64,000 nt of DNA from an uncultured Dialister sp. (GTDB taxonomy: Bacteria > Bacillota > Negativicutes > Veillonellales > Dialisteraceae), in NCBI RefSeq assembly GCF_900538805.1, contig NZ_UPZP01000001.1:555-64554 (forward strand), given 5' to 3'. Shown here in pieces: positions 31,368 through 45,158 of this stretch. The stretch's first letter is position 1, and each line of letters begins with the position of its first letter. The notes beneath the pieces were generated by a model. It saw only the letters and a list, made by a program, of their open reading frames with translations. It was not told the origin of the DNA and did no database searches. The position numbers were made by a program, and so were the translations under genes.

Positions 31368-31964
31368 TCACTCCTCTGCCTTTCCGATGGTGCCCAGTTT
31401 TTCCAGAAGGTCGATGTGGATGGGTGTGTAGGTGCCGGGGTGTTTTCTCAGGTAGAACTGTTCTTCTTCCGGCGCTTCGTAGAAGTTTTCCAGCGGTTTC
31501 ATTTCTGTCCTGATTTTCGGGCGTCTTCCGCCTTCGCCTTCAAATTCGTTGAAAACGATGGCGGCGTCGGTCATGCGGCGGGTGATGCCCCGGTTCTGCA
31601 GGAAGATGAGGTAGTAGGAGATCTGCATGGTGTCTTCGCGGCTGGTGTAGTAAACGCCGCTTTTGAACTGGGGCCCCACGGCTTTTCCCTGGATTCCGTC
31701 GGTGTAGGGGTTGATGATGGTGAAGAAGAGGGAGAGGAGGCTCACGATGTCGATTTTCTTTGGGTTGTAGATAACCTGTATGCATTCTCTGCCTTCCACT
31801 TTCCCGCTGTATATGTCTTCTTTGGAGGGCGCCTCCCGGCTGCAGTTGGCAAAGCCCGCCCGCACCCGGGCTACGCCTTTGACCCGGGAGAAGACTTCCT
31901 GCAGTCCGTAGTAGGGTCCTCCTGCCAGGTACAGTTCTTTCATAAATGCTCCGTTAATGTACAT
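31368..31964 (-). CDS. msrA: MsrA-like protein (peptide methionine sulfoxide reductase fold) lacking the canonical catalytic Cys.
   Basis: Homologous to MsrA across the whole length (EA.Q..Y.P, G.QY.S.IYY), but the GCFWG motif reads AGGPYYG. AAAGGAGGAA lies 6 nt before ATG 31964. Confidence 0.75.
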   Translation of the reverse strand: MYINGAFMKELYLAGGPYYGLQEVFSRVKGVARVRAGFANCSREAPSKEDIYSGKVEGRECIQVIYNPKKIDIVSLLSLFFTIINPYTDGIQGKAVGPQFKSGVYYTSREDTMQISYYLIFLQNRGITRRMTDAAIVFNEFEGEGGRRPKIRTEMKPLENFYEAPEEEQFYLRKHPGTYTPIHIDLLEKLGTIGKAEE

Positions 31965-32034: not shown

Positions 32035-33201
32035 TCAGGAATCCAGATGGCGGGCGGCGGCTCTGTCAAGGTCGAATGTCTTAATCAGTTCCGCCACTGC
32101 CTGGCTGGGCGATACCACACCTGCCAGCACCGCTGCCCTCACTTCCGGAAGTCTGCCTTTGATGACAGGGTCTTCGTAGAAGAGGTTGTGCAGGTGCTCG
32201 TCAATCATGGTCTTCACCCAGGCGATAATCTGCCGCTGGCGGCGGTTTTCAAAGGCGCCGGACTGTTTCGTCACCTTTTCAAATTCCCGCATCACCGCCC
32301 AAAGCTCTAAGAGCCCTGTTTTTTTCAGGGCGGAGCAGCGATAGGCGTGGGTTTTCCAGCCTTCCGTGGCGGGGCGGATAAATTCCACCATCCGTTCATA
32401 TTCGCCCTGGGTGACCTTGGCCCTTTCCAGATTGTCGCCATCTGCCTTATTGACTACGATGGCGTCTGCCAGTTCCATGATGCCTTTCTTGATGCCCTGC
32501 AGGTCATCGCCTGCACCGGTGAGGACCACCAGCATGAAGAAATCGACCATGGAGCGGACCGTGGTTTCGGACTGTCCTACGCCGACGGTTTCCACCAGGA
32601 TCACGTTGCAGCCTGCGGCTTCGCAGAGCATCATGGTTTCACGGCTTTTTCTGGCCACACCGCCCAGGGTGCCGCCGGAGGGAGAGGGTCTGATGAAGCA
32701 GTTTGGCTCCCGGGACAGTTTCTGCATTCTGGTCTTATCCCCCAGGATGGACCCGCCGGTGATGGAGCTGGTGGGGTCCACCGCCAGCACGGCCACTTTA
32801 TAGCCCTGCTGGCAGAGGAGCTGTCCGAAGGCTTCGATGAATGTACTTTTCCCTGCGCCGGGAACGCCGGTAATCCCGATGCGAAGGGAGTGTCCGGTTC
32901 TTGGAAGGAGTGCCTGCAGCACGCGCTGGGCTTTGTCGAAGTCCTTGGGAGCATTGCTCTCGATGAGGGTAATGGCCCTGGCCAGTATCATACGATCCCC
33001 CTTCTTCACGCCTTCCACGTAGTCTTCCACGGACATTTTCTTCCGAAGAGGCACGCGGCGAAGGTTTTCCTTCGGGTAGTACTTGGCGCTGGTGACGCTG
33101 TTCACGGCACTGTCAATCCCGCGCATGACGGTACAGGCAAATTCAGGGTTCTTTTCCTTCGGCACCCAGCTGGGTCTCAGGTCATCATCGTTATCAGGCA
33201 T
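32035..33201 (-). CDS. meaB: Methylmalonyl-CoA mutase accessory GTPase MeaB/ArgK.
   Basis: P-loop GVPGAGKST, switch motifs DPTS...GG.LGD and NKAD. The start is uncertain: the first ATG is 33201; an internal ATG at 33036 would give a 333 aa canonical length. Confidence 0.85.
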   Translation of the reverse strand: MPDNDDDLRPSWVPKEKNPEFACTVMRGIDSAVNSVTSAKYYPKENLRRVPLRKKMSVEDYVEGVKKGDRMILARAITLIESNAPKDFDKAQRVLQALLPRTGHSLRIGITGVPGAGKSTFIEAFGQLLCQQGYKVAVLAVDPTSSITGGSILGDKTRMQKLSREPNCFIRPSPSGGTLGGVARKSRETMMLCEAAGCNVILVETVGVGQSETTVRSMVDFFMLVVLTGAGDDLQGIKKGIMELADAIVVNKADGDNLERAKVTQGEYERMVEFIRPATEGWKTHAYRCSALKKTGLLELWAVMREFEKVTKQSGAFENRRQRQIIAWVKTMIDEHLHNLFYEDPVIKGRLPEVRAAVLAGVVSPSQAVAELIKTFDLDRAAARHLDS

Positions 33202-33212
33202 AAGCGCTTACC

Positions 33213-35408
33213 TTAACCTTCCCTGGCTTCAGCTTTAGCGCGGTCTACAAGAATCTGCAGAAGTTCGATGCAGCACTTCGGGATGTTGGTGCCCGGTCCG
33301 AAGATGGCGGTGGCGCCATGGTCATAGAGGAACTGGTAGTCCTGGGGCGGGATAACGCCGCCGATGCAGACGAGGATATCGCTGCGGCCCCGTTTCTTCA
33401 GTTCTTCCACCAGAGCAGGAAGCAGTGTCTTGTGGCCTGCTGCCAAAGAGGAGAAGCCAACAATATGAACATCGTTATCTACGGCATCCTGGGCAGCTTC
33501 TTCCGGTGTCTGGAAGAGAGGACCTACGTCCACGTCCCAGCCCATGTCGGCAAAGGAGGATGCCAGTACCTTCTGGCCTCTGTCGTGTCCGTCCTGGCCC
33601 ATCTTGCAGAAGAAGATACGGGGGCGGCGGCCTTCGAGCTGTTCAAATTCATCAATCAGTTTCTTGGCCTTGTCAAACTGTCCGTTATCCTGGAATTCGC
33701 TGGAGTAAACGCCGGATACGGTATGGATGGTGGCGTTGTAGCGGCCGGATACCTTTTCCACGGCGTCGGAAATTTCACCAAGGGAGCAGCGGTCATGGGC
33801 TGCCTGTACGGCGGCATCCAGAAGGTTGCCGTTTTCGCGGCTTTCCGCACATTTGGTGATGTGTTCCAGATCCCGGCGTACCTTTTCGGGGTCCCGGATG
33901 GAGCGAAGTTTTTCAAGGCGCTTAATCTGTGCGTTCCGAACGGCGGTGTTATCTATGGAGAGGACGTTCAGCGGATCTTCCTTGGCCAGACGGTACTTGT
34001 TCAGGCCTACGATGGTTTCTCTGCCGGAGTCGATGTCTGCCTGGCGGCGGGCAGCGCATTCCTCGATACGCATCTTCGGAAGGCCGGTGGCAATGGCCTT
34101 GGCCATGCCGCCCAGGGATTCCACTTCCTGGATATGGGCCCAGGACCGTTTAATCATTTCATTGGTCAGGTATTCCAGGTAGTAGGAGCCGCCCCAGGGG
34201 TCGATAATCTTGCAGACTTTAGTTTCATCCTGGATATAGAGCTGTGTATTTCTTGCCAGACGGGCGGAGAAATCTGTCGGCAGTGCGATGGCTTCATCCA
34301 GCGCATTGGTGTGCAGGGACTGGGTGTGGCCCAGAGCTGCGGACATGGCTTCCATACAGGTCCTGGTGATGTTGTTGAAGGGGTCCTGTTCGGTGAGGGA
34401 CCAGCCGGAGGTCTGGGAATGGGTACGGAGGGCCATGGATTTAGGATTCTTGGCGCCGAAGCCCTTCAGAATCTTGGCCCACAGCACTCTGGCGGCCCTC
34501 ATTTTGGCCACTTCCATGAAGTAGTTCTTGCCCTGGTCCCAGAAGAAGGACAGACGTTTGGCGAAGGCATCCACCGGCAGTCCTGCTTTTTCGCCGCAGC
34601 GGATGTATTCCATGCCGTCGGCCAGGGTGTAGCCCAGTTCCAGGTCGCAGGTAGCGCCGCATTCCTGGATGTGGTAGCCGGAAATGGAAATGGAGTTGAA
34701 TTTCGGCATGTACTTGGTGGTGTATTCGAAGATATCGCCGATGATGCGCATGGACATGGCCGGCGGATAGATGTAGGTGTTGCGGACCATGAATTCCTTC
34801 AGGATATCATTCTGGATGGTGCCCTGGAGAATCTTCCTGTCCACGCCCTGTTCAATGCCGGCGCAGATGAAGAAGGCCAGGATAGGAAGGACGGCGCCGT
34901 TCATGGTCATGGATACGGACATCTGGTCCAGCGGAATGCCATCGAAGAGGATGTTCATATCCAGCATGGAACATACCGATACGCCTGCCTTGCCCACATC
35001 GCCTACAACGCGGGGGTTGTCCGCATCGTAGCCGCGATGGGTTGGAAGGTCGAATGCAATGGACAGCCCTTTCTGTCCGGCAGCCAGGTTTCTTTTATAG
35101 AAAGCGTTGGATTCTTCGGCGGTGGAGAAGCCGGCGTACTGGCGTACGGTCCATGGACGGAATACGTACATGGTGGAGTATGGACCTCTCAGGAAGGGCG
35201 GGATGCCGCTCATGAAATCCAGATGATTGCATTCTTTGTAAATGTCCTTGGTGTAGAGCGGACCTACGGGGATACGTTCCAGGGTGGTGTCATACAAATC
35301 ATTGTAGGATTTGCCGGTGGTTTCTTCCAGGTCCTTTTTCCAGGTGTCGTAATCGCAGGAAGGATGGGCTTCCAGGTCGAGTTTTGTGAAATCGGGATTC
35401 ATTGCCAT
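33213..35408 (-). CDS. mutB: Methylmalonyl-CoA mutase large (catalytic, B12-binding) subunit.
   Basis: TIM-barrel substrate domain ([40 protein letters not shown]) and a C-terminal cobalamin domain with DGHDRG. AGAGGAGG upstream. Confidence 0.95.
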
Positions 35409-35409
35409 A

Positions 35410-37689
35410 TTATTTTACCTCCTCTTCCGTAATCTTCATGCCTTTTTCTCTCTGAAGACTGCGGATGATCTCATAGCAGTTTGCCTTCACACTGATGAAA
35501 TCGTCAACACCGGCATCTCGATATGTCTGTTCCAGGTCCTTAGGCGCTGCGCCTGCCAGGAAAACCTTCCCTTTGCCGAGTACTTTCTTCAGACGGGGAG
35601 CCAGGGCCGGTACGTCTTCCGGATAGGTATCATCCTTGGAGCAGATGACGGCGCAGTCATAGGGTGTGCCCTTGTCATCGCAGCCTTTCTTCAGTGCTTC
35701 CACGCATTTATCCCAGCGGGAGCCCGGCTTTCCTTCATCATCCTGGAAGCCGTTGTTCAGATGGACATTGAATTCGCCTACCTGCAGGAAGGAGGTGGAG
35801 AAGTCGGCCCTTGCCTTGTGCTGCGGGATGCGGCCCATGTTGGCCAGGAATACTTCCACGTTCTTTCCTGTTTCCTTCTTGTAATTTTCCGTATCGAAGC
35901 GGAGCCGTTCGAACCGCTCTGTCCAGCGGTGTTCCGTAATGGGACGAACCTTTTCCACTTCTCCCTCCGGAGTGATGGCTTTGTATACCTCGTTCTGGGT
36001 GGCGCCGGCAGAGAAGGCTTCGATGGCTTTATCCAGCTTCCCTTCCGTGGGAGCTGCTTCCAGCTCTTCCAGCTTCCTGCCCAGATATTCCTTATCCATA
36101 TCCTTTCTGTAGTCCTCTACGGCCTTCACAAGCTGTTTCTTCAGGGCAGCCGTATCTTCCGGTCTTGGTTCGATGAGCTCTTCTGCCATGTTCGGATACA
36201 TGTTGTTGCCTACGGCCCGGTCCTTGCGGAAATCCAGTGCCTTGAAGCGCTGTTTCAGGATGGCAAGAATCTGTTCCTGCGGATGCTCTTCCTTGAGAGC
36301 CTTGGTGAAGCCGCCCATGGATTCGATTTTCTGGAATTCCTGCCAGATTTTTTCGGCCATTTCCTTGGTCAGGTGTTCCAGTGCCCAGGAGCCGCCGGCT
36401 GGGTCGATAGGACGGAGCATGCCGAATTCTTCCTGCAGGATAATGTGGGCATTTCTTGCAATACGGCGGGAGAATTCATCGCCCTTTCTCACCGTTTCAT
36501 CGTAAGGTTCGTTTTCGTAGGTATCTACGCCGCCTACCACAGCGGAGAACATGGCGGTGGTATTTCTAAGCATGTTCACGCCGGCATCAAAAATGGTGCG
36601 GTAGAAATAGGCAGGGCGGGAATGGATGCGGCAGCTTCTGTCCGCCTCTTCTGCACCGAAGGCCTTCATAATGTTGGCCCATACCTCCCGGGCAGCCCGG
36701 AGTTTGGCAATTTCGATGAAGAAAATGGTGCCCACGTTGAAGCCGAAGTTGATGGACTGGGCAATATCGTGGATGGAAATTCCTCTCTTTTCCATTTCAC
36801 GGATATATTCCACAGCCATGGCAAATGTATAGGCCACTTCCTGCACCGCATTGGCGCCGCCTCTGGAGAATACTTCGCTCCTCGGCATAATGGTGCGGAG
36901 GCCCGGTGCATTCTTCCTTGCCCAGCGGATGGATTCCGCCATGTCGTCGTAGCAGGCAGAAAGGGGTTTTGGCAGGGTGCCGTTCTTGGCCAGCTGGGAC
37001 AGGGGGTTGGCGCCGATGACGCCATGAAGTTTGCTGGTATCTTTTCCCTTTGCTTTCAGTGCAGCAGATACCAGCGCAATCATGCGGATGGAAGAAGGTC
37101 CGCAGTACATCATGAATGGATATGTTTCAAGGTCAAGACCGTCAAGAAGGCGGGCCATGTCTTCCAACGTGGTAATGGACACACCGGTATCCCCCGGTTT
37201 TACGGCGTCCTTCACATCCACGCCATCGGTGGAAGCACTGTCAAGGCGGACATTGTACACCGTGGAACCTTTGTCGATTTCATGTTTCAGGAGCTCATTA
37301 TTTTCAGAAGGCAGCGTTTCGTCGCAGGCCTGGGCAATCCCCCAGGGCGCTTCCTTGTAGCCGTTCACCGAAGCGCCGCGGAGATAATCGCCCATACCCG
37401 GATAATCGTCGGTGGGCAGGTCCTTATCCATAGCCACCGGGCCTGTGCGGAGCGTGTAGATAGGATCAAAGGTAATGCCTTCGTAGGTCTTTGTATACAT
37501 AAGCTTATCGAAGGGCTTCCCCTTCAGAAGAGCATTGCACGCATCAATCCATTCCTCCCATGTGGGCGGTGTAAACTCATCAAATTTAACTGCCGGGAAA
37601 TCCGTTTTTCCTTCTGATTTTTTAAGGATAGCTTCCAGTTCTTTATCTGTCAGCTGTTTTACCGGTTCCTGGGATTTCTGTTCATCCAT
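35410..37689 (-). CDS. mutA: Methylmalonyl-CoA mutase small subunit.
   Basis: Mutase-fold paralogue with no DxHxxG at the C-terminus; ends 1 nt before mutB. ATG at 37689 (MDEQKSQEP) with AAGGAGGA 8 nt upstream. The track ORF starts 8 codons earlier without an SD. Confidence 0.88.
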
Positions 37690-37802
37690 GAATATATCCT
37701 CCTTTGACAACATCAGAGAAGTAAAGAGTCCGATGATTTCAGTTCTTTTCCGGACAATTTCACCACTTGCGATGTTTCACCTCCTTCAAAGGTATTTACA
37801 TT

Positions 37803-38065
37803 AAAAAAGCCGGCACCTATAGATGGCAGCCGGTAAAAGGGACGCTGTGTCCCAATCCCCTCCCCATCGCTCGCAGGTTTGCGGAAACACTGAGTAACCA
37901 GTGCTTCCTTAACGGTGATTCATTGACAGATAGTTCTCCTGGCTCGGATTCCTCATGCCTGCTCGCCTTCCCAGGTTTCCCCAGTGACATCATTGAGCAG
38001 GTACTCCTCCTTACAGTGGCGGGACCGCTCCGGCTTATACCGGATTCTCTTTTATGCTTACGCAT
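37803..38065 (-). ncRNA. Candidate cobalamin riboswitch with an intrinsic terminator in the 5' leader of mutA-mutB-meaB.
   Basis: The minus-strand RNA contains ..AGAGAAUCCGGUAUAAGCCGGAGCGGUCCCGCCACUGUAAGG.. matching the conserved GGUG.AA.UCC...GC.G.CCCGC.ACUGUAA.G core. A B12-box-like GAGCCAGGAGAACU lies ~75 nt downstream. The hairpin accggcugccaucuauaggugccggcuuuuuu follows. Confidence 0.5.
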
Positions 38066-38104
38066 CTGTCAGCAATGTGAAATTGTCCAAAAGACTACAG
38101 TCAC

Positions 38105-38134
38105 AGTATAATTCATTATTTTCTAAATGTCAAT
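38105..38134 (-). promoter_or_regulatory. Putative promoter driving the riboswitch-like leader.
   Basis: Minus strand reads TTGACA-18-TATACT within an AT-rich divergent intergenic region. Confidence 0.4.
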
Positions 38135-38280
38135 TATTCTATTGTAATTTTTAGTTAATCTTATTGCTAAATAATACTATTATTTACAAATACTATTTGA
38201 AATTGAGCAGAATAAGGCAGTATAATGAGTAAAGATTAAACGTATCATTTGAATTTCAAAATAAAAGAAATGAGGAGACC

Positions 38281-38760
38281 ATGGTGAATAAGGAAATCGA
38301 AATGGAAAGACAGAAATCGGTGGAACTGACAAAGCAGTTTGCAGAGCAGGAAGGAAGACGTCCCCGTATGTACATTGCGGAAATGGAAGAGGATGGCTCA
38401 AAAGAACAAAGAAAGCTGGCTGCCACCACCTTTGCCGATGCCGGCTGGGACGTGGACGTGGGCTCCCTGGAAACGCCGGAAGATACAGCCCGAAGCGCCG
38501 TGGACAACGACGTCCATTTCATCTACTACACGTCGGACAGCCTAAACAGGGTGCATCTCCTCATAGAGCTGGAAAGGGCCCTCACCCTTCTGGGACGGGA
38601 TGATATCCTTATCGCCCTCCATCAGGGCACAGAAGGCGAAAAAGAAGACCTCTTCCGCTACGGTGTGGCCGCCGTCTTCCCCAGGGACTACCCCCTGGAA
38701 CAGGCAGGCCTCACCATGCTGGGTCTCCTCATGGCACAGGCTCAGGAAGAGGAGTCGTGA
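38281..38760 (+). CDS. Standalone B12-binding-domain homologue lacking the DxHxxG motif.
   Basis: Alignable to the mutB C-terminus (RPRMYIAEMEEDGSKEQRKLAATTFADAGWDVDVGSLETPEDTARSAVDNDVH versus [54 protein letters not shown]). The His ligand is replaced. The start may be ATG 38302 (AAGGA 7 nt upstream). Confidence 0.6.
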   Translation: MVNKEIEMERQKSVELTKQFAEQEGRRPRMYIAEMEEDGSKEQRKLAATTFADAGWDVDVGSLETPEDTARSAVDNDVHFIYYTSDSLNRVHLLIELERALTLLGRDDILIALHQGTEGEKEDLFRYGVAAVFPRDYPLEQAGLTMLGLLMAQAQEEES

Positions 38761-38764
38761 TAGT

Positions 38765-38930
38765 TGTTAGACGAAAGACGATAGAAGATAGAAGATAGAA
38801 GATAGAAGATAGAAGATAGAAGATAGAAGCAGGACATTGGAAGGATAGAGAATAAAAGAAAGATGGCTGCAGAAAACCTGCAGCCGGAAGCCAACAGCCA
38901 GTAACCGGAAGCCGATAACTCCCCTATTTT
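38765..38930. repeat. GATAGAA x ~8 and GCCGGAA-type heptamer tandems.
   Basis: gatagaagatagaagatagaag... followed by gcagccggaagccaacagccagtaaccggaagccgataac. Confidence 0.85.
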
Positions 38931-39078: not shown

Positions 39079-39495
39079 TTAGCCAACGGTGAACAGCGGA
39101 TCGCCGCCCTGTACGGACTGGCCTTCAGTAACCTGCATGGAGGTAACCTTGCCATCGCAAGGAGCCATGATCGGGTTGCCCATCTTCATAGCTTCCAGAA
39201 CGAGGACTTCGTCGCCGGCTGCTACTGCATCACCAACATGTTTGTTGATGCGGATAACTTTACCAGGCATCGGAGCTTCAACGGATTCGCCTGCACCTGC
39301 AGGAGCTGCTGCCGGAGCGGGAGCCGGAGCCGGTGCTGGAGCCGGAGCCGGAGCTGCTGCCGGAGCCGGAGCTGCTGCTGGAGCTGGAGCTGCTTTCGGA
39401 GCTGCTGCCGGAGCCGGAGCTGCTGCTGCAGCGCCGCCATCTTTAACTACTACATCGTAATCCTGGCCGTTAACTGTTACAGTAAATTTTCTCAT
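39079..39495 (-). CDS. mmdC: Biotin carboxyl carrier subunit (methylmalonyl-CoA decarboxylase gamma / 1.3S-like) with an Ala/Pro linker.
   Basis: C-terminal biotinyl domain with EAMKM; long (AP)n linker; AGGAGG 7 nt upstream. Confidence 0.9.
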   Translation of the reverse strand: MRKFTVTVNGQDYDVVVKDGGAAAAAPAPAAAPKAAPAPAAAPAPAAAPAPAPAPAPAPAPAAAPAGAGESVEAPMPGKVIRINKHVGDAVAAGDEVLVLEAMKMGNPIMAPCDGKVTSMQVTEGQSVQGGDPLFTVG

Positions 39496-39533
39496 TGTCT
39501 TTCCTCCTAAATGATTGTACTTTCAACTTTCAA

Positions 39534-39848
39534 TTAGAACTGCTGATTGCCGGAAACGCCCGCAATGCGGGCTGCGGTTGTCCAGCCGGTTCTAGCTGCC
39601 GGGCGGATGGAGACGATTTCGCCGCCACCCATAGCAACGATAGCAGCAGCGATAGCTGCTACGACTGCACCATTGTCAGCGGCTTTAGGAGCTGCTGCTG
39701 GAGCTGCAGCTGCTCTCTTGGGAGCTGCGGCCGGTGCCGGTGCTGCGGACTGATTGAGAGATGAACGTACCTGCCAGATCATGATCAGGGCAATTACTGC
39801 AACAACGGCAGCAAATACCGCGATATACATAACTGTACTGTTATCCAT
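39534..39848 (-). CDS. mmdD: Small membrane anchor subunit of the Na+-translocating decarboxylase (MmdD/OadG-like).
   Basis: An N-terminal transmembrane helix followed by an Ala/Pro-rich segment. ATG 39848 with AAAGGA upstream. The track ORF starts at an upstream TTG. Confidence 0.6.
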   Translation of the reverse strand: MDNSTVMYIAVFAAVVAVIALIMIWQVRSSLNQSAAPAPAAAPKRAAAAPAAAPKAADNGAVVAAIAAAIVAMGGGEIVSIRPAARTGWTTAARIAGVSGNQQF

Positions 39849-39889
39849 CTGTACCCATCCTTTCAATTAGAGTATTTAAGCGGCAAATA

Positions 39890-41419
39890 TTAGAGCGGAA
39901 TGTTTCCGTGTTTCTTTGCCGGGTGTACTTCGTGCTTGGAAGCAAGCATCTTCAGAGCATTGATAATTGTCGGACGAGTATTATGCGGATCAATAACTGC
40001 ATCTACATAGCCGCGTTCTGCAGCTTTGTAAGGAGTAGCGAATTCTTCCACATATTCCTTTGTACGCTGTTCTTTGTTCGGATCTTTCTTGAAGATGATG
40101 TTAGCTGCACCTGCAGGTCCCATAACAGCGATTTCAGCGGTCGGCCAAGCGAATACCTGGTCAGCGCCCTGTTCACGGGAGCACATAGCGATGTAGGAGC
40201 CGCCGTATGCTTTACGGAGAATCATGGTGATCTTCGGAACGGTAGCTTCGCAGTAAGCGAACAGCATCTTAGCGCCGTGACGAATTACGCCGGCATATTC
40301 CTGCTGTTTGCCGGGCAGGAAGCCTGGTACGTCGACGATGTTAAGAACCGGAATGTTGAAGCAGTCGCAGAAACGAATGAAACGAGCTGCTTTATCAGAT
40401 GCGTTGTAGTCAAGGCAGCCTGCCATGAATGCCGGCTGGTTAGCAATGATACCAACAGTCTGTCCGTCCATACGAGCGAAGCAGGTGATGATGTTCTTTG
40501 CGAATTCCTTAGCTACATCGTAGTATTCGCCGTTATCTACAATGGACTTAATAACATCGTACATGTTATATGGAGCATTGGAGCTTTCAGGCATAATGGT
40601 GTCGAGAGCCGGATCGGTTCTGGTGGGATCATCACCGGTTTCAACGATAGGAGCATCTTCCATGTTGTTGGACGGCAGGAAGGAGAGCAGGTAACGAATC
40701 TGTTTAATGCAGTCTTCGTCGTTTTCAGCTGCGAACTGAGCTACACCGGAAGTACGGTTGTGGGTCATTGCGCCGCCGAGTGCTTCAGCTGTAATCTTTT
40801 CACCTGTTACGGATTCAACAACAGCCGGGCCGGTCAGGAACATCTGGGATGTTTTCTTAACCATGTAAATGAAGTCGGTCAGAGCCGGGGAGTATACAGC
40901 GCCGCCTGCAGATGGTCCCATGATTGCGGAAATCTGAGGAATAACGCCGGATGCAATGGTGTTGCACCAGAAAATCTTGCCGTAGCCGGAGAGGGCATCG
41001 ACAGCTTCCTGAATACGAGCTCCGCCGGAATCGTTCAGGCCTACGCAAGGTGCACCGACTTTCAGAGCCAGTTCATTTACGTGAACGATTTTAGCTGCAT
41101 GCATTTCACCAAGGGAGCCGCCTTCAACGGTGAAGTCCTGAGCGAATGCAAATACAAGTCTTCCATCAACAGTGCCGTAGCCTGTTACTACACCTTCACC
41201 AGGGAGATCTTTCTTTTCCTGGCCGAAGTTGTGGCAGCGGGATTTTACAAGGGCATTAACTTCTACGAAAGTGCCTTCATCAAACAGAAGAGCAAGTCTT
41301 TCACGAGCAGTCAGTTTGCCTTTTGCATGCTGTTTTTCAACACGTTTTTCGCCACCCATAGCCTCTACATGAGCGAGGTTTTTATGGAGAAGTTCAATTC
41401 TTTCTTCAACAGTTGCCAT
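39890..41419 (-). CDS. mmdA: Methylmalonyl-CoA decarboxylase alpha subunit (carboxyltransferase).
   Basis: Carboxyl_trans domain across the full length (the ERIELLHKN..GGEKRVEKQHAKGKLTARERL N-terminus is typical of PCC-beta and MmdA). Confidence 0.95.
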   Translation of the reverse strand: MATVEERIELLHKNLAHVEAMGGEKRVEKQHAKGKLTARERLALLFDEGTFVEVNALVKSRCHNFGQEKKDLPGEGVVTGYGTVDGRLVFAFAQDFTVEGGSLGEMHAAKIVHVNELALKVGAPCVGLNDSGGARIQEAVDALSGYGKIFWCNTIASGVIPQISAIMGPSAGGAVYSPALTDFIYMVKKTSQMFLTGPAVVESVTGEKITAEALGGAMTHNRTSGVAQFAAENDEDCIKQIRYLLSFLPSNNMEDAPIVETGDDPTRTDPALDTIMPESSNAPYNMYDVIKSIVDNGEYYDVAKEFAKNIITCFARMDGQTVGIIANQPAFMAGCLDYNASDKAARFIRFCDCFNIPVLNIVDVPGFLPGKQQEYAGVIRHGAKMLFAYCEATVPKITMILRKAYGGSYIAMCSREQGADQVFAWPTAEIAVMGPAGAANIIFKKDPNKEQRTKEYVEEFATPYKAAERGYVDAVIDPHNTRPTIINALKMLASKHEVHPAKKHGNIPL

Positions 41420-41501
41420 TCTTACACCTCCAAAAATTTTAGGGTCCCCCGCAGGGGGGGATGAGCTGTCAGGACTGACAGCTCATATGCCATCATTCAA
41501 A

Positions 41502-41954
41502 TTATTTCTTGAAGGATGGGCCGCCGGGGCGTTCTGTCAGTTCAAGCAGAAGGCCAGTTGCCTTTGGATGCAAGAATGCAATATGACAGCCGCCTGCACC
41601 AACACGGAACTTCTTGTCGATGAGCGGAACTTCTTTAGCCTGCAGATCAGCCAGAGCAGCTTCGATGTCATCTACACGGAGAGCAACATGCTGGAAGCCG
41701 TTCTTGCCGCCATTAGCTTTTTCAATGAAACGAGCAATCGGGCCGTCCGGAGTGGTGGAACCCAGGAATTCGAGTTCGCAAGCTTCGGTCTGAGCGGAAG
41801 GTTTGAAGAAGCTTGTGGTTACATGCTGTTCTTCAACGGTTTCATCCGGCAGAGAAGGTTCAAGTCCGAAAATGTCTTTCATCTGCTGTTTAATCTTTGC
41901 GAGATCTTTAACAGCTACGCCAACATGATCGACAGTTAAAACTTTGAATGCCAT
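41502..41954 (-). CDS. mce: Methylmalonyl-CoA epimerase (glyoxalase/VOC family).
   Basis: MAFKVLTVDHVGVAVKDL... with two VOC modules. AAAGGAGGAG upstream of ATG 41954. The track ORF starts 45 codons earlier. Confidence 0.85.
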   Translation of the reverse strand: MAFKVLTVDHVGVAVKDLAKIKQQMKDIFGLEPSLPDETVEEQHVTTSFFKPSAQTEACELEFLGSTTPDGPIARFIEKANGGKNGFQHVALRVDDIEAALADLQAKEVPLIDKKFRVGAGGCHIAFLHPKATGLLLELTERPGGPSFKK

Positions 41955-41973
41955 AATAACTCCTCCTTTAAAA

Positions 41974-42912
41974 TTATTTGAATATTTTGCCCACGATGGA
42001 ATCAACGACTGTGTACGGATCGGTTTTCCGTTCAAAGACTTGTTCCACGTAGTCATTAAATTCACCCGTCTTGGAGATATTTTCTTCAATATGACGGGAA
42101 ATGCGGTCGTGAATCATTTCAAGCATTTCGGAGCGAGCCCGATCGCGTCTTCTTTCATCAAGAACGCCGGATTCTTCCAAGTACTTGCGATGATCACCCA
42201 GGGCTGCTACTACATCATCTACACCCTGGTCTTTGTTCGCAATCGTCCGTTCAATCGGAGGACGCCAGTTCTGGGCTTCGCCTAAATCCAGCATCATTTC
42301 GATTTCAACGTTCAGACGATCTGCGCCGTCACGATCACATTTATTGATGACAAATACATCACCAATTTCGAGGATACCTGCTTTGATAGCCTGAATATCG
42401 TCACCAAGTCCAGGTACGAGCACAACAAGTGTTGTATCCGCATTTTTGACGATATCGACTTCTGACTGTCCTACGCCTACTGTTTCGATGAAAATTACAT
42501 CGAGACCGAAAGCATCCATCAGTTTTACCGCATCAGCTGTCTTGCGGGAAAGTCCCCCAAGGCTGCCGCGCGTGCCCATACTACGGATATAAACACCCTT
42601 ATCCAAGGTCAGGTCGTTCATTCTGATACGGTCGCCGAGGATGGCGCCGCCGGAGAACGGACTGGTAGGATCGACTGCAACGATACCTACGGTTTTACCC
42701 TGTTCACGGTACTTCTTGATCAGGGCATCTGACAGTGTGCTCTTACCCGCACCAGGTGCACCAGTGATACCGATGACCTGTGCACGACCGGTATGATGAT
42801 AGATATCTTTCATGATATCTTCAAAACCATCCCGTTCGTCTTCAACGATGGTAATTGCTCTCGCTAAGGCACGTCTGTTTCCATTCCAAAAATCTTTCAT
42901 TGAGAATTCCAT
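41974..42912 (-). CDS. meaB: Second MeaB/ArgK-type mutase-associated GTPase.
   Basis: P-loop GAPGAGKST, DPTSPFSGGAILGD, NKCD. ATG 42912 (MEFSMKDFW). Confidence 0.85.
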   Translation of the reverse strand: MEFSMKDFWNGNRRALARAITIVEDERDGFEDIMKDIYHHTGRAQVIGITGAPGAGKSTLSDALIKKYREQGKTVGIVAVDPTSPFSGGAILGDRIRMNDLTLDKGVYIRSMGTRGSLGGLSRKTADAVKLMDAFGLDVIFIETVGVGQSEVDIVKNADTTLVVLVPGLGDDIQAIKAGILEIGDVFVINKCDRDGADRLNVEIEMMLDLGEAQNWRPPIERTIANKDQGVDDVVAALGDHRKYLEESGVLDERRRDRARSEMLEMIHDRISRHIEENISKTGEFNDYVEQVFERKTDPYTVVDSIVGKIFK

Positions 42913-43033
42913 GGATACACCGCCTTTTCGAAGAGTAAAGAGAAATAATATAGTTGCAAGGGGCTGAGGATTGCCCCCAGTCCCAAGCAGCCACATTACA
43001 CCATAACGCTAGTCAATAACAGCTGTAAGCAGA

Positions 43034-43432
43034 TTATTTCTTAACGTTTTCTTTGATGAAGTCAATAACTTTCTTTGTTGGGGTGCCAGGTGTGAAGATA
43101 GCTTTTACGCCAGCTTTTTCGAGGCCCGGGATATCGTCTTCGGGGATTACGCCGCCGCCGATAACCAGAACGTCGCCCATTCCTTTAGCTTTCAGTGCTT
43201 CTACAACTTCCGGGAAAAGGGTGTTGTGAGCGCCGGAGAGCAGGGACAGAGCTACTACATCAACGTCTTCTGCGTCTGCTGCTTCAACAATCTGTTCTAC
43301 AGTCTGACGAAGACCGGTGTAAATAACTTCCATGCCTGCGTCGCGAAGTGCACGGGCAATAACTTTTGCACCACGATCGTGTCCATCAAGACCCGGTTTA
43401 GCTACGAGTACTCTGATACGTTTGTCTGCCAT
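43034..43432 (-). CDS. Acyl-CoA mutase small subunit (standalone cobalamin-binding domain).
   Basis: 132 aa with DGHDRG and GGVIP motifs; GGAGG upstream. Confidence 0.9.
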
Positions 43433-43496
43433 TGTAAATTACCTCCAGAAATATGTTGAGTAATGTAATATTCTCTTGCTTCAGGCTGCCCTAAGA

Positions 43497-45158
43497 TTAA
43501 AGGGTGTTGTGCGGTTTGTATTCGCCGAATACTTTACGGAGAACGCCGCAGATTTCGCCTTCGGTGCAGTAAGCACGTACGCAGTCGAGGATGACTGGCA
43601 TAAGGTTAACATGGTCAGGACCTTCAGCCGGAGTCTGAGCTGCTTTTTCAAGTTTAGCCAGTTCTTCAGCAACCTTAGCCTGGTCACGGTTTTCCTTATC
43701 CTTAGCGAGCTGAGCTTTCTTTCTTTCGCCAACGGAAGCATCAATCTTCAGCAGGCCGGTAACCGGCGGTTCTTCCATGGTGAACTTGTTGACGCCAACG
43801 ATTGTTCTTTCGCCGGATTCAACAGCCATCTGCCAAGCATAAGCAGAATCCTGAATTTCTTTCTGGATGTAGCCTTTATCAATAGCTTCTACAGCGCCGC
43901 CCATTTCGTCAATCTTCTTGATGTAAGCCATAACTTCTTCTTCGATGGCGTTGGTCAGTGCTTCAACATAGTAGGAGCCGCCGAGCGGATCAACTACGTC
44001 AGCCAGGCCGGATTCGTAAGCAACGATCTGCTGGGTACGGAGAGCGATGGTTACGGATTCAGTGGTCGGAAGAGCCAGAGCTTCATCGCGGGAGTTGGTG
44101 TGCAGGGACTGGGTGCCGCCCATAACTGCTGCTGCGGTCTGGAGAGCAACACGGATGATGTTGTTGTTCGGCTGCTGAGCGGTCAGCATGGAGCCTGCGG
44201 TCTGGGTGTGGAAACGAAGTTTCATGGACTTCGGGTTTTCAGCATGGAATCTTTCTTTCAGGATTCTAGCCCAGATACGACGGGAAGCACGGAACTTAGC
44301 AACTTCTTCGAGTACGTTGTTGTGAGCGTTCCAGAAGAAGGACAGACGTGGAGCGAATTCATCAATCTTCATGCCTGCTTTCAGAGCTGCTTCGATGTAA
44401 GCAATACCATCGGCAATGGTGAATGCAACTTCCTGAGCAGCGGTGGAACCAGCTTCACGGATATGGTAGCCGGAAATGGAAATGGTGTTCCACTTCGGTA
44501 CGTTTGCGGAGCAGTATTCGAAGATATCGGTAATCAGACGCATGGACGGTTTAACCGGGAAAATGTAGGTGCCGCGTGCTGCGTATTCCTTGAGGATATC
44601 GTTCTGAATGGTGCCGCGGAGTGCGGATGCCGGAACGCCCTGTTTTTCAGCTACTGCAATGTACATAGCCAGCAGGACGGAAGCCGGTGCGTTGATGGTC
44701 ATGGAAGTGGAAACTTTGCCAAGATCAATGCCGTCGAACAGTCTTTCCATATCGTAGAGGGAGTCGATAGCTACGCCTACTTTACCAACTTCGCCAGCAG
44801 ACATTTTGTCATCGGAGTCATAGCCGATCTGGGTCGGGAGGTCGAATGCAACGGACAGGCCGGTGCCGCCGTTAGCAATCAGGTATTTATAACGTTTGTT
44901 GGATTCTTCAGCGGTGGAGAAGCCAGCGTACATACGCATGGTCCACAGACGGCCGCGATACATGGTGGGCTGTACGCCACGGGTGTATGGATATTCACCA
45001 GGGAAACCGAGGTCTCTTTCATAGTCGAAACCTTCGAGATCGAGTGGTGTGTACAGGTTCTTATGTTTCAGACCAACTCTTTCCGGATGTTTTGCAACCT
45101 GTTTTGCATATTCTGCATTGTAGGCATCAAGTTTAGCTTTCAGGGATTCGTTAGACAT
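43497..45158 (-). CDS. Acyl-CoA (methylmalonyl-CoA-type) mutase large catalytic subunit, lacking a B12 domain (split mutase).
   Basis: TIM-barrel mutase domain ([40 protein letters not shown]); ends without a cobalamin domain. AGGAGG upstream. Confidence 0.9.

Follow-up and report, generated by a model that had tools for sequence, protein, structure and literature searches.

A classical cobalamin riboswitch in the leader of the mutA-mutB-meaB operon of an uncultured Dialister sp.: a probable transcriptional OFF switch accompanied by a covarying long-range helix

The stretch of DNA analyzed here, referred to as the window (64,000 nucleotides from an uncultured Dialister sp.), carries on its minus strand an operon for a B12-dependent methylmalonyl-CoA mutase (MCM) and its chaperone, preceded by a long untranslated leader (Table 1). 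The encoded MutA is 95% identical to its counterpart in Dialister succinatiphilus YIT 11850 and 99% identical to a protein from one human-gut metagenome contig. The leader has the organization of a riboswitch in the 5′ region of an mRNA: the aptamer lies on the same strand as mutA, with a promoter upstream and a terminator downstream, followed by mutA itself. Downstream of meaB is an MsrA-like gene (31368-31964, minus strand) in which the catalytic GCFWG motif is replaced by GGPYYG, so that its product is catalytically dead; a TerC gene and sucCD follow. A shorter MsrA-like homolog containing AGKIAE is located between the riboswitch and mutA in Phascolarctobacterium (L033, 3334-3756), and the gene would seem to encode a pseudo-enzyme that regularly accompanies the operon under riboswitch control.

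Upstream of the riboswitch, also on the minus strand, lies a second methylmalonyl-CoA mutase (39079-45158) that has no riboswitch; this enzyme consists of two separate polypeptides, a subunit of 553 aa and a B12-binding one of 132 aa (GLDGHDRG), and is accompanied by its own MeaB and methylmalonyl-CoA decarboxylase genes. The genome thus holds two MCM systems, with only MutAB-MeaB under riboswitch control. A divergent plus-strand gene (38281-38760, 159 aa) is located between the second-mutase operon and the riboswitch promoter and therefore makes read-through from upstream unlikely. Its product has no Pfam match, shows ~38% identity to the C-terminal, B12-binding domain of MutB, and lacks the DxHxxG histidine (EEDGSKEQ). 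In most Dialister loci, this gene has been retained on the upstream side of the riboswitch, and extra copies occur after mutB in L016, L018, and L052. Directly past its stop codon, the window contains a TAGAAGA tandem repeat of 8.9 copies (38768-38829).

Table 1. Elements of the mutA leader and the operon that follows it, in order of transcription (positions in the window)
Feature	Position	Strand	Description and basis
Sigma-70-type promoter, TTGACA-17-TATACT	38105-38133	-	11 of 12 positions match
P0 5′ strand, AGUCUUUUGGACAAUUUCAC	38077-38096	-	Extreme 5′ end of predicted transcript (first 20 nt), directly upstream of P1
Cobalamin riboswitch aptamer (RF00174) with P6 extension	37912-38084	-	cmscan; alignment to V. 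parvula and S. sputigena mutA riboswitches
P4/L4, P5/L5, GCCACUG core	38009-38047	-	String occurs once in the window
B12 box, GAGCCAGGAGAACU	37932-37945	-	String occurs once in the window
Optional inserted hairpin	37883-37908	-	Between AAUCACCGUU linker and P13; missing from many relatives
P13 stem-loop, ACCUG-CGAGCGA-UGGGG	37862-37878	-	Same motif annotated P13/L13 in Data Set S1 of PMC9600662
Switching sequence, GAUGGGGAGGGGAUU	37854-37868	-	5′ half of predicted antiterminator; folding
P14, variable hairpin, GGGAC-ACAGC-GUCCC	37839-37853	-	Sequence varies between relatives, pairing kept
Intrinsic terminator	37803-37833 (quoted string to 37834)	-	Stem 37810-37833, U6 tract 37803-37808
Perfect extended Shine-Dalgarno-like element, ACCUUUGAAGGAGGUGAA	37776-37793	-	Conserved; between terminator and P0 3′ strand
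P0 3′ strand, GUGAAAUUGUCCGGAAAAGAACU	37741-37763	-	40 nt downstream of U tract
mutA ribosome-binding site, AAAGGAGG, and ATG at 37689	37687-37705	-	Sequence AAAGGAGGAnnnAUUCAUGGAUGAA conserved
Operon mutA-mutB-meaB	32035-37689	-	Regulated operon
mutA-like beta subunit	35410-37689	-	759 aa; mutase domain, no DxHxxG motif
mutB, catalytic B12-binding subunit	33213-35408	-	731 aa; carries GQDGHDRG; NF006944, 1220 bits (cut-off 876)
meaB, GTPase chaperone	32035-33201	-	

Transcription is predicted to start near 38098, downstream of a promoter whose sequence (TTGACAnnUAGAAnAnAAUGAAUUAUACU) is kept across the Dialister loci. An earlier interpretation made from the letters of the window (the sequence-only reading) had named this promoter; both boxes are present, with a spacer of 17 rather than 18 nt. 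The terminator folds as CCGGC(U)GCC/GGUGCCGG, with eight pairs, one bulge, and a 7-nt loop (-12.4 kcal/mol), and is followed by U6; because of the bulge, it was missed by a simple terminator scanner. A terminator stem with covarying arms and a U tract occurs in all leaders of the clade. The terminator string quoted in the same reading lies at 37803-37834; the distance given there to the mutA Shine-Dalgarno (SD) sequence, about 115 nt, is corrected here to ~100 nt (the U tract ends at 37803 and the SD begins at 37705). The mutA gene starts 114 nt past the U tract, co-oriented with the leader, and a promoter scan found no promoter-like site between the terminator and mutA.

A cmscan search against Rfam, which had been proposed as a check on the cobalamin-riboswitch-like leader described in front of the mutase operon, confirmed this description: the aptamer matches RF00174 (Cobalamin) with 91.8 bits (E 1.8e-21) over model positions 1-189 of 189, compared with a gathering score of 31.5 bits. 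It is the sole Rfam family matched in the whole 64-kb window, and scanning the leader below the Rfam threshold brought up no additional known family. The strings earlier quoted as aptamer core and B12-box-like sequence each occur once, the second being the B12 box itself; the upper coordinate given at that time (38065) cuts off the first 19 nt of the aptamer, which contain the 5′ strand of P1. The GCCACUG/GGUCCCGCC core is invariant in an alignment with two tested riboswitches. The window RNA is a genuine cobalamin riboswitch of ordinary architecture, joining a known, experimentally characterized group, and by analogy to this group it would be expected to bind adenosylcobalamin (AdoCbl) or another corrinoid.

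To place the leader among its relatives, 57 genome loci from Dialister, Phascolarctobacterium, Succiniclasticum, and Veillonellaceae or Acidaminococcaceae were gathered. Of these, 52 extend far enough upstream to be informative, and every one of the 52 has RF00174 ahead of mutA on the same strand; the contig of L001 ends before the aptamer is complete. The best 120 homologs listed in the protein search are all at least 64% identical and of the Dialister or Phascolarctobacterium type, with Veillonella not among them.

Riboswitches in front of mutase genes have already been documented, and the closest relative represses. Kennedy et al. (2022, mBio; PMC9600662) assayed 86 cobalamin-riboswitch reporters in B. 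subtilis, 38 of which repress GFP on corrinoid addition, 37 of these 38 having an intrinsic terminator. Their category "corrinoid-dependent isoenzyme" comprises four cases: two from D. propionicus (mutA-1 and mutA-2), one that fits V. parvula mutA, and a fourth inferred to be S. sputigena mutA (PMC9600662). The earlier expectation that riboswitches of this family are not placed before B12-dependent enzymes is outdated in light of these cases. The V. parvula DSM 2008 element precedes Vpar_1761-1763 (mutA-mutB-meaB), is assigned to this category, belongs to the repressing 38 in the class "Transcriptional", and served as one of two models ("promiscuous"), responding in vivo to Cbl, pCbl, CreCba, and Cbi (PMC9600662). 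Its leader, with the native ribosome-binding site (RBS), regulates the fused reporter in cis, in a construct that starts at P1, and hence lacks any P0-like 5′ strand, and in a heterologous host, B. subtilis (PMC9600662).

The resemblance between the V. parvula element and the window extends from the host (Negativicutes/Veillonellaceae) and the downstream mutA-mutB-meaB genes to the aptamer core and the expression platform, which in V. parvula consists of the AAUCACCGUU linker, a P13 of the form ACCUR-CGAGCGA-URGG, and a GGGGAUU tract, followed by a terminator with U6. The aptamer core, AAUCACCGUU, ACCUG-CGAGCGA-UGGGGAGGGGAUU, the GGGGAUU tract, and the terminator of the window all align with the mutA riboswitches of both V. 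parvula and S. sputigena, and folding predicts that the V. parvula antiterminator draws on the same segment as that of the window. The window differs from V. parvula in a shorter spacer between the G tract and the terminator, with one hairpin (P14), and in the extra hairpin before P13. Other platforms of the Negativicutes type, namely, those of Sporomusa ovata nifH, nikA, tonB1, and tonB3 and Selenomonas sputigena btuB1, btuB2, and mutA, likewise combine a CGAGCGA-type L13 with UGGGGAGGGGAUU and a subsequent terminator, and all seven are within the repressing reporter set (PMC9600662). In the RNAs of these two species, the G tract pairs directly with the pyrimidine-rich 5′ arm of the terminator; in the window, by contrast, the arm is CCGGCUGCC, and the antiterminator would form via the P14 3′ strand and linker into the distal arm and loop.

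The Dialister-clade leader contains two further features: a long-range helix, P0, and an SD-like element. The published V. parvula construct was made without the 5′ flank and would lack the 5′ strand of any equivalent of P0. P0 joins the first nucleotides of the predicted transcript to a segment close to mutA, and the minimum free energy (MFE) fold computed for the entire leader (z -2.9) includes this pairing. The helix covaries: in 21 distinct sequences of the Dialister clade, standard pairs occupy 93% of cells and 7 of the 16 pairs have changes on both sides, counts that are somewhat favored by the fact that the P0 register of L016, L052, L138, and L140 was set by hand. Examples of the paired segments include UUUAGAC/GUCUAAA, UUGGAC/GUCCGG, UGCGGAC/G-CCGCA, CCGCAGC/GCUGCGG, and UGCAGU/GCUGCA. 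None of 500 shuffles reached the observed pairing, and slid controls gave only 33-51%. The helix measures ~20 bp in the window and in L004 and 11-13 bp in the four loci registered by hand; many of its positions are G-U pairs on the mutA-sense strand, and in many relatives 6-10 nt separate the end of its 3′ strand from the mutA SD. For the Phascolarctobacterium and Succiniclasticum leaders, RNAduplex gave no P0 above shuffled controls.

These properties bear on whether the complementarity belongs to the RNA or to the DNA. Were it a DNA-level inverted repeat, the two copies could be operator half-sites or could include the -35 element of a plus-strand promoter (TTGTCC-18-TATAAT, 38083-38112), and the P0 5′ copy does overlap this promoter-like site, the divergent gene does start at 38281, and most Dialister sequences do share the same core, GACAAUUUCA/UGAAAUUGUC. 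This explanation is nevertheless improbable, given that L016, L052, L138, and L140 preserve the complementarity despite differing in sequence and that the G-U pairs of the helix would become A-C mismatches on the other strand and in a DNA-level symmetry. The helix also persists in three loci with a different upstream neighborhood: tblastn places the B12-binding-like paralog of L016 and L052 downstream of mutB, not upstream of the riboswitch, and the upstream gene called in L138 encodes a DUF362 protein. Moreover, a better plus-strand promoter, TTGAAA-18-TATAAT (38197-38226), lies nearer the divergent gene.

As an RNA helix, P0 would operate on read-through transcripts, the 5′ end of which would pair 40 nt past the terminator and enclose the whole riboswitch just upstream of the mutA RBS. 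Its function is probably to stabilize or insulate the mRNA, either by protecting the 5′ end or by insulating the RBS from the structured leader. Both 5′-terminal stem stabilizers and STAB-SD elements are known in Firmicute mRNAs, including the aprE and ermC leaders and the cryIIIA STAB-SD. Similar to these elements, P0 holds the first transcript nucleotides in a helix next to the RBS, and the leader has an SD-like sequence without a start codon; in contrast to them, the P0 segments are ~330 nt apart and enclose a complete riboswitch and terminator, and the stabilizing role is putative here. No description of a clamp helix like P0 was found in the literature searched. An RNase III processing stem was also considered and is a weak candidate, with only 11-13 bp in L016, L052, L138, and L140.

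The SD-like element has no properly spaced start codon; its core (GAAGGAGGUGAA) is preceded by a complementary ACCUUU, and GGAGGUGA recurs in the mutA leaders of Phascolarctobacterium. A role as a STAB-SD or as a standby site is possible. An upstream ORF starting from the GUG before AAAUUGUC was rejected, as the triplet varies among relatives (GUG, UUG, GGG, UGG, CUG, and GCG) and the SD-like element is 13-19 nt away, too far for normal initiation. The conserved G of this putative start triplet is accounted for by its pairing with C21 of P0.

P0 can form only on read-through transcripts, which argues that the leader and mutA constitute one mRNA and against a stand-alone sRNA. Riboswitch-controlled non-coding RNAs are known for B12-dependent pathways, namely, Listeria Rli55, Enterococcus EutX, and Listeria AspocR. 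The last of these is described in PMC11575231. They share with the window a cobalamin riboswitch tied to a B12-dependent catabolic pathway and a ligand-dependent termination that yields a short RNA, but they act in trans or antisense and make expression of the pathway depend on B12, whereas the riboswitch of the window belongs to the leader of the very mRNA that encodes the enzyme, with repression by B12 as its predicted effect. The sequence-only reading had offered a riboswitch-terminated sRNA as one of two implications of the placement before mutA. For the window, this would entail a EutX/Rli55-type RNA (~295 nt, or its read-through extension) that sequesters a regulator or base-pairs in trans, with mutA transcribed from a promoter of its own. 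A strong terminator ~100 nt before the mutA RBS and conserved elements past it (the SD-like sequence and the P0 3′ strand) are compatible with such an RNA, and a terminated fragment will exist in any case, so that a secondary role is possible. It is very unlikely to be the main function, considering that the co-oriented mutA comes next without an intervening promoter-like site, that the order riboswitch-terminator-mutA is kept over three genera, that P0 connects the 5′ leader with nucleotides adjacent to the mutA SD, implying a single mRNA, and that the V. parvula leader with its native RBS acts in cis on a fused reporter (PMC9600662).

For a riboswitch acting in cis on mutA, the direction of switching depends on which segments compete. 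Alternative terminator and antiterminator structures, the folding of which had also been suggested earlier, were examined in 15 Dialister-clade leaders and two tested relatives, each folded from the platform up to the terminator loop, i.e., with polymerase at the decision point. In all 17, the pre-terminator MFE structure has 5-12 nt from the 5′ arm and loop of the terminator engaged by L13, the P13 3′ strand, or the G tract, predicting an antiterminator built on these segments. Forcing P13 to form left the terminator arm largely free, at a cost of 2.6-9.4 kcal/mol relative to the unconstrained fold; 1-3 nt of the 5′ arm were paired in the seven leaders counted, and the arm was largely free in the rest. 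For the window, the respective energies are -19.6 kcal/mol unconstrained and -13.2 kcal/mol with P13 forced. Its predicted antiterminator segment includes GAUGGGGAGGGG, with GAUGG pairing with CCAUC (37822-37826) and GGAGGGGA with UCCCUUUU, and the predicted partners of the switching sequence are the P14 3′ strand, the linker, and the terminator 5′ arm and loop. From lineage to lineage, the complementary stretches vary in concert (CCAUC/GAUGG, CCCAU/AUGGG, and UCCCU/AGGGA), and the P13 stem occurs as CCUG/UGGG, CCUA/UAGG, and CCCA/UGGG. The full-length MFE fold contains the terminator together with a portion of the alternative helix; therefore, the switch must be kinetic.

Two other arrangements of the platform were tried and rejected: an antiterminator formed by the aptamer P4 strand (AGCCGG) with CCGGCU, which shows no covariation in loci with a CCGAC arm, and P14 as the regulated terminator, which is ruled out by the lack of a consistent U tract after P14. 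RNAalifold applied to the platform was uninformative, recovering only invariant pairs, as MAFFT misaligned the variable hairpins (indels).

Stabilization of P13 by the ligand through an L5-L13 kissing loop is established for the class (cited in PMC9600662). The L13 motif of the window is identical to the one annotated in Data Set S1 (PMC9600662), no convincing register between L5 (UCCCG) and L13 (CGAGCGA) was derived, and RNAalifold returned an alternative register for P13. P13, the helix that the ligand would stabilize, and the predicted antiterminator both require the 3′ strand of P13; thus, the ligand should favor termination. In the mechanism proposed, RNA polymerase would begin near 38098, and without corrinoid the switching sequence (end of L13, P13 3′ strand, and G tract) would pair with the P14 3′ strand, linker, and terminator 5′ arm and loop, the resulting antiterminator permitting read-through into mutA. 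Once a corrinoid is bound, P13 would be stabilized by the L5-L13 kissing loop and the G-rich segment withdrawn, so that P14 and the terminator could form and transcription would stop at ~37803. The window riboswitch is, with good confidence, a classical adenosylcobalamin-type, cis-acting transcriptional OFF switch on mutA-mutB-meaB of Dialister; the direction assigned to Dialister itself follows from folding models and from analogy to the tested homologs. The opposite, ON-type behavior, also raised by the sequence-only reading, in which corrinoid prevents the terminator so that mutase is made only when the cofactor is available, is highly improbable: it has in its favor physiological logic only, together with the increase of MCM expression by B12 in Xylanibacter ruminicola, where no riboswitch is near the MCM genes (PMC11575231), and against it stand the V. 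parvula mutA homolog and three other mutA riboswitches in the repressing set (PMC9600662), the sharing of the P13 3′ strand with the predicted antiterminator and not with the terminator, and the lack, once P13 is formed, of any free segment complementary to the terminator 5′ arm.

Placing one of the two mutase systems under a B12 riboswitch of the OFF type would depart from the expected logic of expressing the enzyme only when its cofactor is present. Repression of a B12-dependent enzyme by B12 is counter-intuitive, and no explanation for B12 repression of MCM was found in the literature searched. In the gut, Dialister, Phascolarctobacterium, and Veillonella convert succinate to propionate via methylmalonyl-CoA mutase and depend on shared corrinoids, and the arrangement is conserved among them. 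Since only MutAB-MeaB of the two mutase systems is riboswitch controlled, corrinoid scarcity would raise the levels of apo-enzyme and of its loading chaperone. This suggests a scarcity response, in which low B12 leads to more apo-mutase and chaperone and abundance trims the surplus, a logic that would parallel riboswitch control of B12 uptake. Such a response is relevant to the influence of B12 supply on propionate production.

The riboswitch as such is ordinary, and the relative nearest to it has been characterized before; the remaining interest lies in the regulatory logic and the P0 clamp. It is possible, though the proposal is a tentative one, that the Dialister-clade mutA leader holds a second regulatory layer, omitted from published reporters and composed of the P0 clamp and the SD-like element without a start codon. 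If P0 sets stability, processing, or translation only on read-through transcripts, then the leader would be a two-tier switch, which, if true, would raise the MutAB-MeaB isozyme specifically under B12 scarcity, beside the riboswitch-free second mutase. A functional P0 clamp would also be an addition to riboswitch architecture.

Several additional RNA elements were observed in the gathered loci. Phascolarctobacterium and Succiniclasticum have a second conserved element between the terminator of the cobalamin riboswitch and mutA (L042, 3710-3900; also L022-L048). It begins with UAUAUACGGCCUGGACAACCGU, continues with conserved blocks, and in some loci (e.g., L041 and L042) is accompanied by a second terminator-like U tract; it had no Rfam match even at E<=1 and possibly represents a cis-regulatory RNA not yet described. 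Downstream of mutA-mutB-meaB, four Phascolarctobacterium loci have an additional riboswitch of the AdoCbl or Cobalamin family (L033, 9948-10080; L034, 9951-10123; L039, 9776-9909; and L057, 9782-9915), and a NiCo riboswitch is present in L055. Finally, some Veillonellaceae have tandem cobalamin aptamers upstream of mutA (L052, 2930-3104 and 3586-3756; L138, with B12 boxes at 586 and 1254), and these resemble D. propionicus mutA-1 and mutA-2.
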